From an uncultured Bdellovibrionales bacterium (GTDB lineage: Bacteria; Patescibacteriota; Minisyncoccia; Moranbacterales; UBA1568): 64,000 nucleotides of DNA. The notes under the pieces were generated by a model. That model did not search any database, was not told the DNA's origin, and saw only the letters and a program-made list of their open reading frames with translations. The position numbers were made by a program, and so were the translations under genes. The DNA is taken from positions 71,957-135,956 of the forward strand of contig CAZTBI010000001.1 in NCBI GenBank assembly GCA_964612055.1, given 5' to 3'. Numbering within the stretch: position 1 is the first letter of the stretch; every line of letters begins with the position of its first letter. Shown here one piece after another: positions 1-39,533 of this stretch.

Positions 1-474
1 TCGATCAACGATGAGAAGGATTCTGCTTTGGAGACGAGCACCTTACTTGAAACGTATCTCGATACCAGACGTCATGGACTCGGAGATGAGGTGAAACGGC
101 GTATCATGCTTGGGACGCACAGCTTGTCCTCGGGGTATTACGATGCCTATTATCTCAAAGCGCAGAAAGTCCGGGCTCTCTTGAAACAGGATTTTGAAAA
201 GGCGTTTGAAGAAGTGGATCTCATTTTTTCTCCGACTGCACCAGAGCCAGCCTTCAAGATTGGAGAGAAGACAACGGATCCGCTCAAGATGTATCTCGGT
301 GATATCTATACGGTTACAGCCAACCTGACCGGTGTCCCGGCGATATCCTTTCCTATCGGTACTGTCCTGGAAGAAGGAAAGAATCTTCCTATTGGAGGGC
401 AGCTTTTAGGCAAATGGTTTGATGAAGAGACACTTCTTTCCGTAGCGCACGCTTTCGAAACACAAAAACAATAG
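1..474 (+). CDS. gatA: Glutamyl-tRNA(Gln) amidotransferase subunit A, C-terminal part (5' truncated by window edge)
   Basis: Frame-1 ORF open from base 1. Translation ...[17 protein letters not shown]...[14 protein letters not shown]... matches the conserved GatA C-terminus. gatB lies 6.3 kb downstream. Confidence 0.85.
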
Positions 475-3701: not shown

Positions 3702-3778
3702 GGGGTTTTTCTTTGTTTGCCGAAGTCCTTTTTGTGCGATAAAATGAAATATTGAGAGATAATTTTTCCCATACTATT

Positions 3779-4696
3779 ATGCGCCAATATCTTGATCTTC
3801 TGAAGCATATCGAGGAGCACGGGGTCGACAAGGGTGACCGGACTGGTACCGGAACACGCAGTGTCTTCGGATATCAGATGCGTTTTGATCTCTCTCAAGG
3901 GTTTCCGCTCATGACGACCAAGAAGATGGCGCTTCGTTCAATCATCGTCGAGCTCCTTTGGTTTTTGAAAGGCGATTCCAATTTGAAATATTTGGCGGAG
4001 AATAATGTTCATATTTGGGACGAGTGGCCCTACAAGGCATACTTGCAGCGTACCGGACAAGCGGTGCCAGTAACGGGGAGTGCAGAGTGGAAAACTGGTA
4101 TCACGGCTTTTATCGAAAAGATCAAAACAGATGAAGCTTTTGCCAAAGACTATGGCGAGCTGGGACCAATTTATGGGTACCAGTGGCGCAATTGGCCAAC
4201 ACCAGATGGCCGGCATATTGATCAGATCACCCAGGTGATCGAGCGCATCAAGGCAAAACCAGATGATCGACGCTTAATTGTATCGGCTTGGAATGTCGCC
4301 GATATAGAGGAGATGGCCAAGGCGGGACTCCCACCGTGTCACTGCCTCTTTCAGTTCTATGTCGCCAACGGAAAATTGTCGTGCCAGCTCTACCAGCGGA
4401 GCTGCGACACCTTTCTCGGTGTGCCATTTAATATTGCTTCCTACGCACTCTTGACCATGATGGTAGCGCAGGTCTGTGATTTGGAACCAGGAGAATTCGT
4501 ATGGACTGGTGGTGATGTGCATATTTATAGCAATCATCATGATCAAGTGAAGGAGCAGCTTTCTCGTGATCCGTTGCCACTCCCAATCATGAAGCTCAAT
4601 CCGGCAGTGAAAAATATCTTTGATTTCAAACTTGAGGATTTCACCCTTGAGAATTATCAATCACACGAAGCGATCAAGGCTCCAATCGCCGTCTAA
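3779..4696 (+). CDS. thyA: thymidylate synthase (ThyA type, long form with insertion)
   Basis: [11 protein letters not shown]...[19 protein letters not shown]...[11 protein letters not shown]... gives the active-site Cys motif and the conserved ThyA N-terminus. Confidence 0.93.
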
Positions 4697-36166: not shown

Positions 36167-36979
36167 CTATTTTTCTTGGTTTACAAGATAACGGATAGCC
36201 GGCTCTTGCATAATGGCGTGAGTGGCACCGTAGACGATGAAGAGACTTTTTCCTTCGTGCCATTTTTTCTCAATCTCTTTCAATATGTACTGATCACGGA
36301 GGATGCTCGTTGCTCGTGCTACTTGATTACTGACAGAGTAGATATTGGCTGGGTCAGAGGCTTTTTCAAAGTGCTCTAAATCATTCAGATCAAGCTCCGT
36401 CCCGAATATTTTTTTGTGCGTCTCAGAAAGGGTAATGAAAATATCCTGCGTGACCCTAAGTGCCTTGGCTTCATCAGAAACAAGTCGTTGAGCGTATTGT
36501 AAAGCATCCCCACCATTGTCTACCTTTTTCCACTGATCGACAGAGCGAGAAAAGTAGTAATAGAGTATCTTTTCTTTCGAAAATTGTTTAAGAAGTTCTG
36601 TCACTTCATAGGCAAGGGGAGGCTCAGGCGACTCTACGGTTATGCCAGTCTGTTCTGCTAGATATGTTGCCAAGCCGGCCTCGCCATCATTTCTGATGGT
36701 TTCCTCTTCATTGTCAGTGTTATCTCGCGTACCTCCCTCTACTAGGACAACGGATTGGCCCTTTTCGATTTTTGAAGCGAAACTTTTCCAGGCATCCTTT
36801 ATCTCTGCTATTTGTTCATGGTGAGGATCGTAAATGTGATCAGCTCCAAAATATGAAATGTGCCGGCCATTTTTTTCAACTTCGAAAAAGTGCGGAAAAA
36901 TCTGCTCCGCATTTTCATACTCTTCGTATGTCATCAGACGATCAATCCTAGAGTTTTTGATAGTTGGTATTTGCTCCAT
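36167..36979 (-). CDS. hypothetical protein
   Basis: Long ORF (300 aa from upstream GTG at 37069; ATG MEQIPTIKN at 36979). No recognisable family. Confidence 0.45.
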   Translation of the reverse strand: MEQIPTIKNSRIDRLMTYEEYENAEQIFPHFFEVEKNGRHISYFGADHIYDPHHEQIAEIKDAWKSFASKIEKGQSVVLVEGGTRDNTDNEEETIRNDGEAGLATYLAEQTGITVESPEPPLAYEVTELLKQFSKEKILYYYFSRSVDQWKKVDNGGDALQYAQRLVSDEAKALRVTQDIFITLSETHKKIFGTELDLNDLEHFEKASDPANIYSVSNQVARATSILRDQYILKEIEKKWHEGKSLFIVYGATHAIMQEPAIRYLVNQEK

Positions 36980-37059
36980 AAATATATTGCTGGGCTTATT
37001 GGACGTGCTCAGAACTGTCGATAGGGGAAAATAAGGGAAGATTTGAAGGTTTGGGAACT

Positions 37060-37476
37060 TTAGAGCCAATCAGGTTTTGTTTCTTGGGTAGGAATTGCCG
37101 CATCGAACTCCAGGTAATTGTTCGTCAGTTCTTCATCGGGAAGTATGTCTCTGTTCGCTACAAAGTATGGTTCGGGTGAAATCTTACTATCTGTAACCAC
37201 TGTCAAATTGTTTGAAGTCGGGTTGTGGTTTGTATAAAGTGCAGGGTCATTTTCTGGAGGAAAGATATACTTACCTGACGACGCTGAGAGGTAGGCAACT
37301 TTTTCCATATACTTTTTTTCTTCACCATCGAGCTTTTCGTAATCTTCCACCGAGATAGATTTATCGTGCTCAGCAACGTACTTCCACGCGATTTCACCCT
37401 TCTTAATTTTCTGAGAAGTAAAAACGCCTTTGCCTTCAATCTCTGATGGTTTTGTGTAAACGGGGACTAGATACAT
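37060..37476 (-). CDS. SET-domain protein (putative lysine methyltransferase)
   Basis: MYLVPVYTKPSEIEGKGVFTSQKIKKGEIAWKY...YTNHNPTSNNL (NHxCxPN-like) suggests a SET fold. The in-frame N-terminal extension of the ORF overlaps the tRNA-Gln gene, so the start is set at ATG 37476. Confidence 0.55.
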   Translation of the reverse strand: MYLVPVYTKPSEIEGKGVFTSQKIKKGEIAWKYVAEHDKSISVEDYEKLDGEEKKYMEKVAYLSASSGKYIFPPENDPALYTNHNPTSNNLTVVTDSKISPEPYFVANRDILPDEELTNNYLEFDAAIPTQETKPDWL

Positions 37477-37490
37477 AGTTTTTTTGAGTG

Positions 37491-37562
37491 CTGGGGAGGA
37501 AGGGATCGAACCTTCGCATGGAGGCTTCAAAGGCCCCTGCCTTACCGCTTGGCTACTCCCCA
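37491..37562 (-). tRNA. tRNA-Gln (anticodon UUG)
   Basis: 72-nt cloverleaf on the minus strand (TGGGGAGTAGCCAAGCGGTAAGGCAGGGGCCTTTGAAGCCTCCATGCGAAGGTTCGATCCCTTCCTCCCCAG). U1-A72 pair, anticodon loop CUUUGAA, T-loop GGTTCGATCC. CCA is not encoded. Confidence 0.9.
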
Positions 37563-37815
37563 ATATGTTTATAATTCTCGACTATCTTTTTCAATTCTCT
37601 TCTCCTACTTTTCGTCTTTAAATACTGCTCCTGTTTTCTGGCTTCAGTCAGAGTATCGTACTCTTTGTGATAGATCAAGATTAGTGGAGTGCGGTATTTT
37701 GTGGAAATGTTTTTTCCAGAATTGTGTTCTTGAATACGCTGCTCCAAGTTATCCGTTGACCCTGTATAGGTACGAGCATCTTTTTGGCTCAGGAGAACGT
37801 AGATGTAGCCTTTCA
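37553..37815 (-). CDS. small GIY-YIG nuclease-superfamily protein (~87 aa)
   Basis: MKGYIYVLLSQKDARTYTGSTDNLEQRIQEHNSG...TPLILIYHKEYDTLTEARKQEQYLK matches the GIY-YIG catalytic motifs. The last four codons (HIGE*) are encoded by the first 10 nt of the tRNA-Gln gene. Confidence 0.8.
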
Positions 37816-37945
37816 TAGAAGTTCCTGCCTTATCCGTCCTCGTTTGACTCGGCCGAGACAAGCCGCTTGGCCCGTCTCGACTCGGTCTCACCGAGGTGGA
37901 CCTGCTTCGGTGAGCGAAGCGAGACGAGCTACTCCCCAATGGAAT
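37816..37945 (-). pseudogene. degenerate duplicate of tRNA-Gln 5' portion interrupted by GC-rich palindromic inserts
   Basis: Minus-strand read: TTGGGGAGTAGC-[55 nt hairpin cluster]-GCCAAGCGG-[30 nt palindrome]-TAAGGCAGG. This reproduces tRNA-Gln positions 1-11, the D-loop and positions 20-28, in order. Confidence 0.5.
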
Positions 37946-37946
37946 C

Positions 37947-39533
37947 CTAGTTTTCGGTCACGACGTGACCACCAAGCATACTGAGTGCCTGGTTGATGAG
38001 AGGATTTTCATCGACACTCTGACTGGAAGCTGCTGTCTTGGTCTCGTCGAGCTTGATAACAAGCTTCATTTTGGCTCCTAGGATGGTATCAAAGGCCTTT
38101 TCCAGTGTCAATTGATTGGCTTTTTCCTCCAGGCGTTCTTTGTGAAAGGGGTATTTCACCGCGATGACAATAGTAGACCCGGTCGTTTCAATAGGGCGGG
38201 CAGTGGAGAGGCCAAGGGAGAGGGAAGCATTGAGCTTTTTGGCAGTATCAAGAATAGCCAGCCAGTGCTCTTTGATATGGGACAAATCAAAAACAGATTC
38301 AATAACTTCTTTACTTTCGCTCGCTATTGGTAATTCCTCGGTCTGAGTTTCTATTTTCGTTGGTGTTTTTGTATCAGCTTTTTTTTCGTGAACGAGAGGA
38401 GTTTTTGGTTCTGGGGGATTACTAGGTGGTGTAGCCTCTTTGTTCTGAGCCAAGATTTTTACGATAGCAATTTCGAGAGGCAGTTCCGGGATAACAGCCG
38501 TCTTGCTGGTGATATGAGCTATCTGAAACTCTTCCAGCATATGTACAATGTGCGCTGGCGTAAAAAGTGAAGAGAGTTCCAGCAGGATTGCTTGTTGTTC
38601 CTTTGTGAGTTCACCAAGTTCAGCGAGGCCGAGCTTTTGATTGGTGTTGACGAGGAGGAGGTCGCGTAGGGTATGAAGAATGAGTCCAGCAAAAAGCGAG
38701 AGATCAGTCCCATTCCCGGAAACCTCACGAACAAAAGAAAGGCTCTGGTACAACTGATTTTCTCCGATGAGACTGAGGAGATGAGTGACGTTGGCTTTTT
38801 TCGTCGTACCGAGCGCGTCAATGATCGTATCTTCGGTGATCGGTGAAATACCAAGCGAAGCAATCTGCATCAAGAGTGACTCAGCATCGCGCATACCACC
38901 CTCAGCCGCAAAAGCAATCATTTGCAGTGCTTCGTCACTGACTTTTAGTTTCTCTGCTTTGGCGATATAAGAAAGTTTTTCGACGATGCCTTTGACCGGA
39001 AAACGAGTCAGATCGAAACGCTGACAACGCGAAAGAATGGTATCAGGTACTTTATGAAGAGCGGTGGTAGCGAGAATGAAGACGACGTGCGCTGGTGGTT
39101 CCTCCAGGGTTTTGAGAAGGGCATTGAAGGCGCCAATAGAAAGCATGTGGACTTCGTCGATGATGTAGACCTTGTGAGAACCAAGGGCTGGCGGGAGAAC
39201 GACGGTCTCGCGGAGTTCACGAATATTGTCGACTCCGGTATGAGAGGCGGCGTCAATTTCGATGACATCAAAACTTTGTCCCTCAGCCATGATGAGACAG
39301 TGTTCGCATTTCCCACACGCCTCGGCGCCTTTGCGATTGGAACAGTTGATAGCTTTGGCAAAGAGTCTGGCAAGGGTTGTCTTGCCGGTGCCACGGGGAC
39401 CGGTAAAGAGATAGGCCTGACCAACTTTTCCGAGTTTGAGGGCGTTCTCGAGAGTGGTGACGACGTGTTTCTGCCCAATTACTTCGGAAAATTTCTGAGG
39501 ACGGTATTTGCGGTAAAAAGTCGAGGAGGACAT
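37947..39533 (-). CDS. dnaX: DNA polymerase III subunit gamma/tau
   Basis: YRKYRPQKFSEVIGQKHV...LFTGPRGTGKTTLARLFAKAINC...CGKCEHC gives the clamp-loader Walker A and zinc module. Confidence 0.93.
   Translation of the reverse strand: MSSSTFYRKYRPQKFSEVIGQKHVVTTLENALKLGKVGQAYLFTGPRGTGKTTLARLFAKAINCSNRKGAEACGKCEHCLIMAEGQSFDVIEIDAASHTGVDNIRELRETVVLPPALGSHKVYIIDEVHMLSIGAFNALLKTLEEPPAHVVFILATTALHKVPDTILSRCQRFDLTRFPVKGIVEKLSYIAKAEKLKVSDEALQMIAFAAEGGMRDAESLLMQIASLGISPITEDTIIDALGTTKKANVTHLLSLIGENQLYQSLSFVREVSGNGTDLSLFAGLILHTLRDLLLVNTNQKLGLAELGELTKEQQAILLELSSLFTPAHIVHMLEEFQIAHITSKTAVIPELPLEIAIVKILAQNKEATPPSNPPEPKTPLVHEKKADTKTPTKIETQTEELPIASESKEVIESVFDLSHIKEHWLAILDTAKKLNASLSLGLSTARPIETTGSTIVIAVKYPFHKERLEEKANQLTLEKAFDTILGAKMKLVIKLDETKTAASSQSVDENPLINQALSMLGGHVVTEN

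Follow-up and report, generated by a model that had tools for sequence, protein, structure and literature searches.

How does a gene for a small nuclease come to be wedged between a complete transfer RNA (tRNA) gene and a broken copy of that tRNA's own 5′ part? The question is posed by a locus in the DNA of an uncultured bacterium, deposited as a member of the Bdellovibrionales and placed by GTDB in the Patescibacteriota (Moranbacterales, UBA1568), of which we analysed 64,000 nucleotides (nt) of contig CAZTBI010000001.1 (assembly GCA_964612055.1); this whole stretch is ‘the window’ hereafter and its numbering is used throughout. A reading made from the letters alone (the sequence-only reading) had proposed that a GIY-YIG gene resembling a homing endonuclease had inserted as a mobile or selfish cassette at a tRNA-Gln gene, with partial duplication of the target and later decoration by hairpins, or else that the locus was an unusual fragmented tRNA. 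The first proposal has gained ground, as the same architecture occurs in close relatives and across phyla and the site is empty in two related genomes (L091 and L092; such handles denote the compared loci). We think that the locus is probably one copy of a small, 376-bp selfish cassette, made of a nuclease gene and hairpins, that colonizes tRNA genes by partial duplication of the target.

The anatomy of the locus is compact, and its genes read on the minus strand. The complete tRNA-Gln(UUG) gene lies at 37490..37562 (-), where ARAGORN and Rfam (62.6 bits, E 1.4e-12) agree on a single tRNA. Overlapping it by 10 nt is the stand-alone, single-domain GIY-YIG gene (37553..37816 (-); 87 amino acids (aa) plus stop; Pfam PF01541), whose open reading frame (ORF) ends inside the tRNA just as the sequence-only reading had described: it closes with ...AAA CAT ATT GGG GAG TAG, its final codons are tRNA nt 1-10, and its stop codon TAG is tRNA U8-A9-G10. 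The upstream tRNA copy, likewise correctly seen, consists of three pieces that are mismatch-free and collinear with the 5′ part of tRNA-Gln: segment A (ATTGGGGAGTAGC; 37928..37940 (-); tRNA nt -2..11) is an exact 13-nt direct repeat of 37552-37564, segment B (GCCAAGCGG; 37863..37871 (-); nt 10-18) an exact 9-nt direct repeat of 37545-37553, and segment C (TAAGGCAGG; 37824..37832 (-); nt 19-27) an exact 9-nt direct repeat of 37536-37544. Along the minus strand, the end of dnaX at 37947 is followed by seven bases, segment A, a 56-nt GC-rich insert (37927-37872), segment B, a 30-nt GC-rich insert (37862-37833), segment C, another seven bases, the ATG of the 87-aa ORF and then the complete, overlapping tRNA. 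The inserts had been put at 55 and 30 nt; the second figure stands, and the first becomes 56 nt, a length that is itself ambiguous by a GC dinucleotide.

The nuclease gene thus lies between a complete tRNA and a direct repeat of part of that tRNA (13+9+9 nt), and the two copies of segment A are spaced 376 nt apart, giving a repeat unit of 376 bp. This unit encodes only the 87-aa GIY-YIG ORF, with no site-specific recombinase in the ORF list or by Pfam. Exact 9-mers shared between a 73-nt and a 130-nt sequence are expected by chance about 0.04 times, as against the collinear 13+9+9 nt found; the window has a chain score of 27 nt, and chains of at least 25 nt arose with mismatched tRNAs in 10 of 580 control trials. 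The insert region has a GC content of 57-63%, compared with roughly 37-46% in most neighbouring intervals, and the 130-nt leader folds at -59.1 kcal/mol (z = -3.3 against shuffles). Segment C ends in AGG (tRNA nt 25-27), which with the next A forms AGGA 7 nt before the ATG; we infer a ribosome-binding role for this Shine–Dalgarno-like site. A near-identical strain (L087), from another sample and independently assembled, has the same structure, which rules out an assembly artefact. The downstream tRNA copy would, as we see it, be the complete and functional one, and the upstream copy (nt -2..27) is likely to be redundant, interrupted by hairpins and serving as the leader of the nuclease gene.

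The inserts are made of hairpin modules, and all the palindromes listed in the sequence-only reading are present in them. Module a (27 nt, TCGTCTCGCTTCGCTCACCGAAGCAGG; 37901..37927 (-)) is inserted at tRNA position 11/12 in the D-stem and is identical at 27 of 27 positions to the hairpin at the same place in a relative, L088, despite saturation of synonymous sites in the ORF. Nested in the same insert, in inverted orientation, is module b (29 nt, CCGTCTCGACTCGGTCTCACCGAGGTGGA on the plus strand; 37872..37900 (+)), which is missing from L088, where the alignment has a 29-column gap. Since the first insert equals the 27-nt hairpin of L088 plus an extra inverted 29-nt module, module b appears to be a later nested insertion, which bears out the proposed later decoration; on its plus strand (CCGTCTCGAC...CCGAGGTGGA) it is of the same family as hairpins in L009 and L005 (CCCGTCTCGAC...CCGAGGTGGA), and together modules a and b form a composite hairpin of -28.4 kcal/mol. 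Module c (30 nt, CTTGTCTCGGCCGAGTCAAACGAGGACGGA; 37833..37862 (-)) interrupts the D-loop at tRNA position 18/19, with no tRNA base missing, and is nearly identical to its counterpart in L088 (a 1-nt indel and three substitutions). All seven tRNA-Gln lineages compared (the window, L087, L088, L008, L007, L009 and L089) have a hairpin at position 18/19, and its ends are invariant among them, reading CYYGTCTCG...GGA between a flanking GG and a flanking TAAGGCA. As hairpin sequence is conserved while synonymous sites of the ORF are saturated, the hairpins are constrained sequences, integral and selected parts of the element, and not scars. The upstream copy that the sequence-only reading called degenerate is therefore interrupted, as it said, but mere decay does not describe it. 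No other comparable GC-rich hairpin occurs in the 64-kb window; CCGYCTCGAC, allowing one mismatch, has 15 matches in the window against 7.2 expected, with a hairpin only at the locus itself.

The contigs of the nearest homologues were fetched and read locus by locus, and the layout of the window is shared by L087 (protein 97% identical to that of the window), L088 (77% identity, tRNA-Gln CUG), L007 (Doudnabacteria), L008, L009 (CPR2), L089, L074 (a markedly different tRNA-Gln UUG) and L090 (tRNA-Leu UAG, with a homologue at 57% identity). In these relatives tRNA nt 1 to ~25-39, carrying one or two GC-rich hairpins, stand upstream with the ATG following within 1-20 nt, and the ORF abuts or overlaps the complete tRNA. 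The fragment matches the local tRNA in every relative despite differing acceptor stems (GGGGAG, GGGGCG, GCCCGG, TCCCGGG). Finer details recur as well: the ORF stop codon is tRNA U8-A9-G10 in L007 and L089 as in the window, and L007, like the window, has AGGA or AAGG from tRNA nt 20-27 placed 7-8 nt before the ATG. The fragment of L087 has a 1-nt deletion (one G, in the acceptor strand of segment A) and unchanged hairpins.

Well beyond these close relatives the same association is seen. We scanned the protein alignment against one genome per species, which gave 174 confirmed relatives, and analysed the best 80. A co-oriented tRNA lies within 400 nt of the ORF in 57 of these 80 loci, just downstream in 29 and just upstream in 20; 23 loci have no co-oriented tRNA within 400 nt, and 20 have none anywhere in the locus. 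The hosts include Patescibacteria, Bacteroidota, Planctomycetota, Omnitrophota, Ignavibacteriota and others, and the tRNAs are of many isotypes. Beyond the ORF, 30 of 58 close ORF–tRNA pairs have a second, truncated version of their tRNA (at least 20 matched nt), compared with 15 of 580 when tRNAs were swapped between loci as a mismatched control. Which part is copied depends on gene order: the 5′ part where the tRNA follows the ORF, and the 3′ part where the tRNA precedes it. Repeat boundaries usually fall at the mature tRNA end or a few nt outside it (median flank extension 2-4 nt), with longer extensions of 9-12 nt in some loci and of >60 nt in arrays, and the distance from ORF to tRNA ranges from -10 to ~25 nt.

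Hairpins, too, are a general property of the truncated copies: 32 loci contain a total of 42 GC-rich hairpin inserts, most of which interrupt the tRNA sequence without removing any of it, and they favour the D-arm (28) over the anticodon arm (5) and the T-arm (5). In Bacteroidota and relatives the insert is often one identical 20-mer, CCTGCCTGCCGGCAGGCAGG, which recurs in nine protein-selected loci, among them several from different Bacteroidota genera, in fragments of tRNA-Arg and tRNA-Leu; all 13 of its copies there adjoin a GIY-YIG ORF and 12 of the 13 lie in recognizable tRNA-derived sequence. Some loci hold tandem arrays of units, each a fragment with hairpin followed by an ORF: three units in L076 and two each in L046, L040, L044, L047, L075 and L079. 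The outer fragment of the L046 array contains three hairpins and the inner fragment one, which again fits decoration after insertion. Near GIY-YIG loci we also observed runs of tRNA-Gly-like copies upstream of a genuine tRNA-Gly (L054 1299-1700, L027 1560-1655, L078 1671-1730), in which nt 1-29 and 41-56 are kept, the anticodon region is replaced or interrupted, and ARAGORN makes no call.

Occupied and empty versions of the site, whose comparison the sequence-only reading had recommended, could be set side by side. A metagenome scan with the exact tRNA core found two loci, L091 and L092, with an identical tRNA-Gln(UUG) (a 72-nt sequence), dnaX directly upstream, a spacer of 59-75 nt and no cassette in between, as opposed to the occupied site of the window and L087. 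The dnaX gene, which encodes DNA polymerase III gamma/tau (37947..39533 (-) in the window; Pfam DNA_pol3_delta2 2.3e-44 and further clamp-loader families), matters here only as the upstream neighbour; its product in L092 is 63% identical to that in the window, and dnaX followed by tRNA-Gln is the ancestral order, judging from these genomes. Downstream of its tRNA, L092 carries a different GIY-YIG gene and, immediately after it, a 15-nt tRNA 3′ fragment, which suggests that the same tRNA gene has been colonized from either side in related lineages.

The encoded protein is a plausible enzyme for such a cassette. Its residues 2-72 match the Pfam GIY-YIG domain PF01541 at E 4.6e-16 (59.3 bits, cut-off 22.6), and there is no second Pfam domain apart from a marginal match to the related T5orf172 family. 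The catalytic-type residues, Y6, Y17, G19, R27, H31 and E63, do not vary in a set of 23 relatives to which the window protein belongs. The closest solved structures are the UPF0213 proteins EF2693 (1ywl, 5.8e-14) and BH0048 (1zg2, 4.7e-13), and the 87-aa single-domain protein falls among UPF0213/COG2827-like proteins by size (~80-110 aa) and by having UPF0213 as its closest characterized relatives. The group I intron endonuclease model of NCBIfam (TIGR01453) stays below its cut-off of 56.05 bits, scoring 21.9 bits for a match confined to the first 37 residues. A tblastn search of 50,697 INPHARED records returned no phage homologue, and on that ground we reject a phage origin of the nuclease. 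Between the window and L088, pN is 0.145 and pS 0.87, with synonymous sites saturated, a ratio of changes that marks the ORF as being under purifying selection.

Two further observations concern the sequence upstream of this gene. A 128-aa ORF with a TTG start inside the tRNA fragment (window 37553-37939 (-)) crosses all three hairpins and joins the GIY-YIG gene without a change of frame; we reject this longer frame (37939..37553) as the true gene because close homologues all begin at the MKGY... methionine. A similar N-terminal extension, rich in Arg and Ser, is seen in one database homologue, P0003. A promoter-like site at 38083-38111 (-) (TTGACA, 17 nt, TACCAT, with an upstream TG; 10/12 matches) falls within the 3′ end of dnaX, ~145 nt ahead of the tRNA fragment, and could drive a unit of fragment, nuclease and tRNA; the count of such sites is not above shuffle expectation.

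How might such a cassette move? We infer the following mechanism by analogy, and the nuclease activity on which it turns is itself predicted. The nuclease would nick or cut the DNA of a tRNA gene, and may act on single-stranded DNA that forms hairpins or a cloverleaf, as the Ssn nucleases do. The break would be repaired from a cassette-bearing copy, and pairing of each break end with a different one of the two tRNA repeats would bring in the cassette along with the partial duplication. Conserved tRNA sequence would here act as a portable homology arm, as in homing, and one that works across species; the repeats hardly reach beyond tRNA sequence, which lets the tRNA itself fill this role. Breaks in a cassette-bearing copy that were repaired from its own upstream repeat would add units, matching the tandem arrays. 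The ORF and the tRNA would be co-transcribed from a promoter upstream of the tRNA, and RNase P would release the tRNA. Packed between fragment and tRNA, the ORF presumably shares the transcription unit of the tRNA, and if so, the host could not silence the cassette without losing the tRNA. As for the hairpins, they may be recognition modules of the nuclease, by analogy with SsnA and its NTS repeats, and/or they may guard the cassette against deletion by recombination, by dividing the direct repeat into stretches of 13+9+9 nt, and/or stabilize the 5′ end of the mRNA.

Several findings weigh against the selfish-cassette reading, or at least complicate it. By Pfam the 87-aa protein has no DNA-binding domain, which leaves its specificity without explanation, and the occurrence of close relatives at different tRNAs and loop positions is a poor fit to a classical sequence-specific homing enzyme. 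The intact tRNA copy would keep any target that lies within the tRNA, and could therefore be cleaved by the cassette's own nuclease. The SRM motif, HGTCWYN(0-2)YYVSBRHN(0-5)WNVSBRGN(0-2)RNCYNB, which lies within 500 nt of 71% of SsnA homologues (PMC11893778), has 0 matches in 87 loci including the window (shuffled mean 0.5). Early decay of the window copy is possible: most relatives carry R and G at the positions of its Q26 and R71, and all three changes in the ORF relative to the sister strain L087 are nonsynonymous, with none synonymous. The empty-site genomes L091 and L092 are family-level relatives only, and not isogenic strains. The hairpin CCTGCCTGCCGGCAGGCAGG occurs 42 times in 35 viral-contig stretches (IMG/VR, L093-L127), far above chance, with three occurrences in tRNA-like sequence (L094, L117, L124) and one beside a GIY-YIG gene (L124), which indicates that the Bacteroidota 20-mer hairpin, at least, can spread or persist independently. 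Finally, in L090, L005, L049 and L085 further tRNA fragments follow the complete tRNA, and such loci must have had histories more complex than a single insertion. As a separate observation, the 20-mer of viral contigs often stands between short direct repeats of the sequence around it, for example between two copies of cacagaga or of ttgcgga.

The complex loci deserve a closer description. Fragments lie on both sides of the ORF–tRNA pair in L090 (1935-2000 and 2357-2530), L049 (2380-2485) and L085 (2470-2520). In L090 the upstream GCCTGGG and the downstream CCAAGGC make a compensatory acceptor pair, and the complete tRNA differs (GCCGCGG/CCGCGGC), which hints that a resident tRNA was split by an incoming unit of ORF and tRNA. 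The idea that the cassette carries a tRNA of its own is hinted at by L090 and L005, whose fragments differ from the complete tRNA; for L049 and L085, repeated invasions on both sides explain the fragments as well as a cargo tRNA does. Strains of one Moranbacteria species (L005 3360-3497 vs L006 3330-3660) differ downstream of tRNA-Gln(CUG), the alternatives being a pseudo-tRNA-Gln unlike the neighbouring tRNA, with hairpins in the D-loop and the anticodon loop, and a second GIY-YIG gene.

The region 3′ of tRNA-Gln is variable in other ways as well. There the window (37476-37490) and L087 (535-609) diverge completely, the window leading to a SET-domain gene (37476..37060) and L087 to a terminator-like hairpin; the tRNA 3′ end is a synteny breakpoint between the two sequences and possibly the mark of a second insertion event. 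In L008 (2366-2560) and L091 (reverse complement 456-690, or ~3702-3936 in plus-strand numbering), tRNA-Gln is closely followed by ~200 nt of conserved, GC-rich and structured sequence. An antisense copy of the tRNA T-arm (GGAAGAGATCGAAC) opens this region, and in L008 a sense T-arm with an acceptor 3′ fragment closes it; at one homologous position L008 has CCTGCCTGCCGGTAGGCAGG and L091 the CPR-type CCGTCTCGACGAGACAAACCGAGGTGG. The region has no match in Rfam.

An alternative to a role of the hairpins in mobility is that the truncated tRNA and its hairpins are chiefly a functional 5′ leader of the nuclease mRNA, selected as RNA, an explanation that we hold possible but doubtful. The hairpins would protect the 5′ end or gate a ribosome-binding site built from the 3′ strand of the D-arm, and an RNase P cut at the downstream tRNA would separate mRNA from tRNA, in the window removing the stop codon as well. 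The idea is compatible with a mobile cassette and competes with it only over what the hairpins do. It accords with the end of the fragment lying 1-20 nt before the ATG in most loci, with the AGGA/AAGG of the window and L007, and with an ORF–tRNA distance that leaves little room for a separate tRNA promoter and makes co-transcription likely. It also accords with the 6-bp outer stem of the 18/19 hairpin, which is paired on the tRNA-sense strand in 47 of 48 cells compared; 14 of these are G.U, which on the other strand are A.C mismatches, a pattern that hints at sense-strand function as RNA or as single-stranded DNA. Yet there is no systematic difference in folding energy between sense and antisense across 25 hairpins (mean difference -0.9 kcal/mol), and module b is inverted. 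In loci whose tRNA precedes the ORF, the fragments with hairpins come after it, on its 3′ side, which means that a 5′-leader role cannot be general, and hairpin-riddled pseudo-tRNAs without an adjacent ORF exist (L005, L027, L090).

We judge it unlikely that the three components are unrelated passengers, that is, palindromes like repetitive extragenic palindromic (REP) sequences or miniature inverted-repeat transposable elements (MITEs) that settled in dispensable DNA, beside a neutral redundant tRNA copy and an unconnected nuclease. The viral copies of CCTGCCTGCCGGCAGGCAGG, which are almost never near a GIY-YIG gene or a tRNA, speak for this, as do the accumulation of hairpins with apparent fragment age in L046 and the nested insertion in the window. 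In the protein-selected loci, however, every copy of that 20-mer is beside a GIY-YIG ORF and all but one are in tRNA-derived sequence, and the 64-kb window has no comparable GC-rich hairpin elsewhere. Passengers would also hardly keep position 18/19 and the hairpin ends invariant in seven lineages whose ORF synonymous sites are saturated, or insert into tRNA arms mostly without loss of tRNA bases.

More improbable again is a domesticated host function, in which the nuclease and a decoy fragment guard tRNA genes against elements that integrate at tRNA sites, or maintain and amplify tRNA loci as SegB does in phage T6. Purifying selection on the ORF over long divergence and its tight, conserved coupling to an essential gene would suit a host function, and adaptive tRNA amplification by SegB is a precedent (PMC13096335). 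Set against these are a patchy distribution (23 of 80 loci without a co-oriented tRNA within 400 nt, the site empty in L091 and L092, and strains that differ at the locus, L005 vs L006), a target tRNA that changes between close homologues (Gln vs Leu at 57% identity), and tandem arrays and decaying copies of the kind typical of selfish elements.

The other possibility raised by the sequence-only reading, a split or multi-intron tRNA whose exons are the three mismatch-free upstream pieces and whose hairpin inserts, at D-stem and D-loop positions that recall the non-canonical tRNA introns of archaea, would be excised from the RNA, is effectively refuted, since the copy stops at nt 27 without an anticodon, no second tRNA 3′ half exists in the 64-kb window at up to three mismatches, ARAGORN in intron and pseudogene modes reports only the known tRNA and a spurious match inside dnaX with nothing at the upstream copy, Rfam, with E allowed up to 10, returns neither a tRNA nor an intron family for 37816-37945, no cloverleaf is restored, a complete identical tRNA lies immediately downstream (376 nt), and the fragment of L087 has lost a base of its acceptor strand.

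If the selfish-cassette reading is right, the locus may stand for something broader. We suggest, tentatively and at somewhat less than even likelihood, an undescribed, phylum-spanning class of autonomous selfish elements of ~0.35 kb, each consisting of a single-domain GIY-YIG nuclease with cognate hairpins, partially duplicating tRNAs, borrowing them as homology arms and promoters, and relying on an enzyme guided by structure (hairpin or cloverleaf) and not by a specific sequence; the hairpins of such an element would enter the arms of the redundant tRNA copy, chiefly at the loops, and seldom cost it any tRNA bases. To our knowledge, a selfish element of this size would rank among the smallest autonomous ones. 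Full-text literature searches found no published description of the cellular architecture or of the 20-mer palindrome, though their coverage was incomplete and an earlier description is possible. For annotation, such a class would explain the small genes labelled ‘GIY-YIG nuclease family protein’ beside tRNAs, together with stray partial tRNA genes, in Patescibacteria, Bacteroidota, Planctomycetota, Omnitrophota and other phyla; gene callers extend such ORFs too far, across the hairpins, and the tRNA counts given by tRNA finders may be wrong there. For the biology of selfish DNA, it would mean that the most conserved genes of the cell are used as landing pads, homology arms and promoters. It would link the phage association of SegB with tRNAs and the hairpin-guided Ssn nucleases, which act on single-stranded DNA, to a cellular system, and it would offer candidate structure-guided nucleases, with their natural hairpin partners, as tools.

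How, then, does the cassette compare with known systems? Archaeal multi-intron and split tRNA genes have short structured inserts in the D-, anticodon- and T-loops, which have been proposed to be mobile between tRNA genes, and they yield functional tRNAs after cleavage by the splicing endonuclease. Here, in contrast, the hosts are bacteria, the interrupted copies are truncated and an intact copy lies alongside. Nor does the region around the ORF (36500-39000) contain an Rfam intron family at E up to 10, which sets it apart from group I and group II introns. REP sequences and bacterial interspersed mosaic elements (BIMEs) with their REP-associated tyrosine (Y1) transposases (RAYTs), and the IS200/IS605 elements, resemble the cassette in that GC-rich palindromes flank a small nuclease gene, and those systems recognize hairpins in single-stranded DNA. 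They differ in using an HUH/Y1 transposase, whereas the enzyme here is predicted to be a hydrolytic GIY-YIG nuclease and no Y1 gene is present, and they have neither a tRNA target nor a target duplication.

Integrative elements that target tRNA genes encode a tyrosine or serine recombinase and usually duplicate the 3′ part of the tRNA. Like such prophages, genomic islands and integrative and conjugative elements (ICEs), with their attL and attR, the cassette has a complete tRNA at one border and a direct repeat of part of it at the other. The unit here is 376 bp with a nuclease only, either end of the tRNA can be duplicated, and the repeat is interrupted by hairpins, whereas the known tRNA-targeting elements that leave partial tRNA genes are ~9-23 kb in the cited cases (PMC9897764).

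The Ssn family (SsnA/NTS; cd10448 GIY-YIG_unchar_3) comes closer. Its members are single-domain proteins of ~94 aa with catalytic Y6, Y17 and E64, and their genes are flanked by 20-50-nt hairpin-forming repeats, which the proteins bind as single-stranded DNA and cut beside, site-specifically and without acting on double-stranded DNA or RNA; the layout of repeat, gene and repeat was noted as insertion-sequence-like (PMC11893778, Nat Commun 2025). The invariant Y6, Y17 and E63 of the present protein and the hairpin modules of 27, 29 and 30 nt upstream of its ORF are parallels, and the window protein, being nearest to UPF0213 among solved structures, may belong to a sister family. The hairpin sequences here differ from NTS, tRNA has 0 occurrences in the Ssn paper (PMC11893778), and the hairpins of the window are confined to the tRNA fragment and not dispersed.

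SegB offers the other parallel. It is a protein of ~220 aa with a DNA-binding region. In the reports on phages T4 and T6, it is a free-standing GIY-YIG homing endonuclease that is statistically associated with tRNA genes of many isotypes, cleaves the DNA of tRNA genes, is preferentially inherited, and drives tandem repeats of tRNA and segB by means of a microhomology that the 5′ end of the tRNA shares with the 3′ end of segB (PMC2330249; PMC13096335). Here likewise the ORF runs at its 3′ end into the 5′ end of the tRNA and units are found in tandem, and, as for a SegB-like gene, the cassette is present or absent at a conserved site, occupied in the window and L087 and empty upstream of the tRNA in the family-level relatives L091 and L092. 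Differences remain: SegB is a phage protein, whereas the window protein is an 87-aa single domain with no INPHARED match, it combines no DNA-binding domain with the nuclease and falls short of the group I intron endonuclease model, and a standing partial tRNA duplication and loop-inserted palindromes are not described for SegB in the text available from those reports (PMC2330249; PMC13096335). Taken together, the closest analogues of the cassette seem to be phage SegB and the Ssn/NTS nucleases, and the known kinds that it brings together are the homing-type GIY-YIG genes of tRNA loci and the hairpin-associated, single-domain GIY-YIG nucleases.

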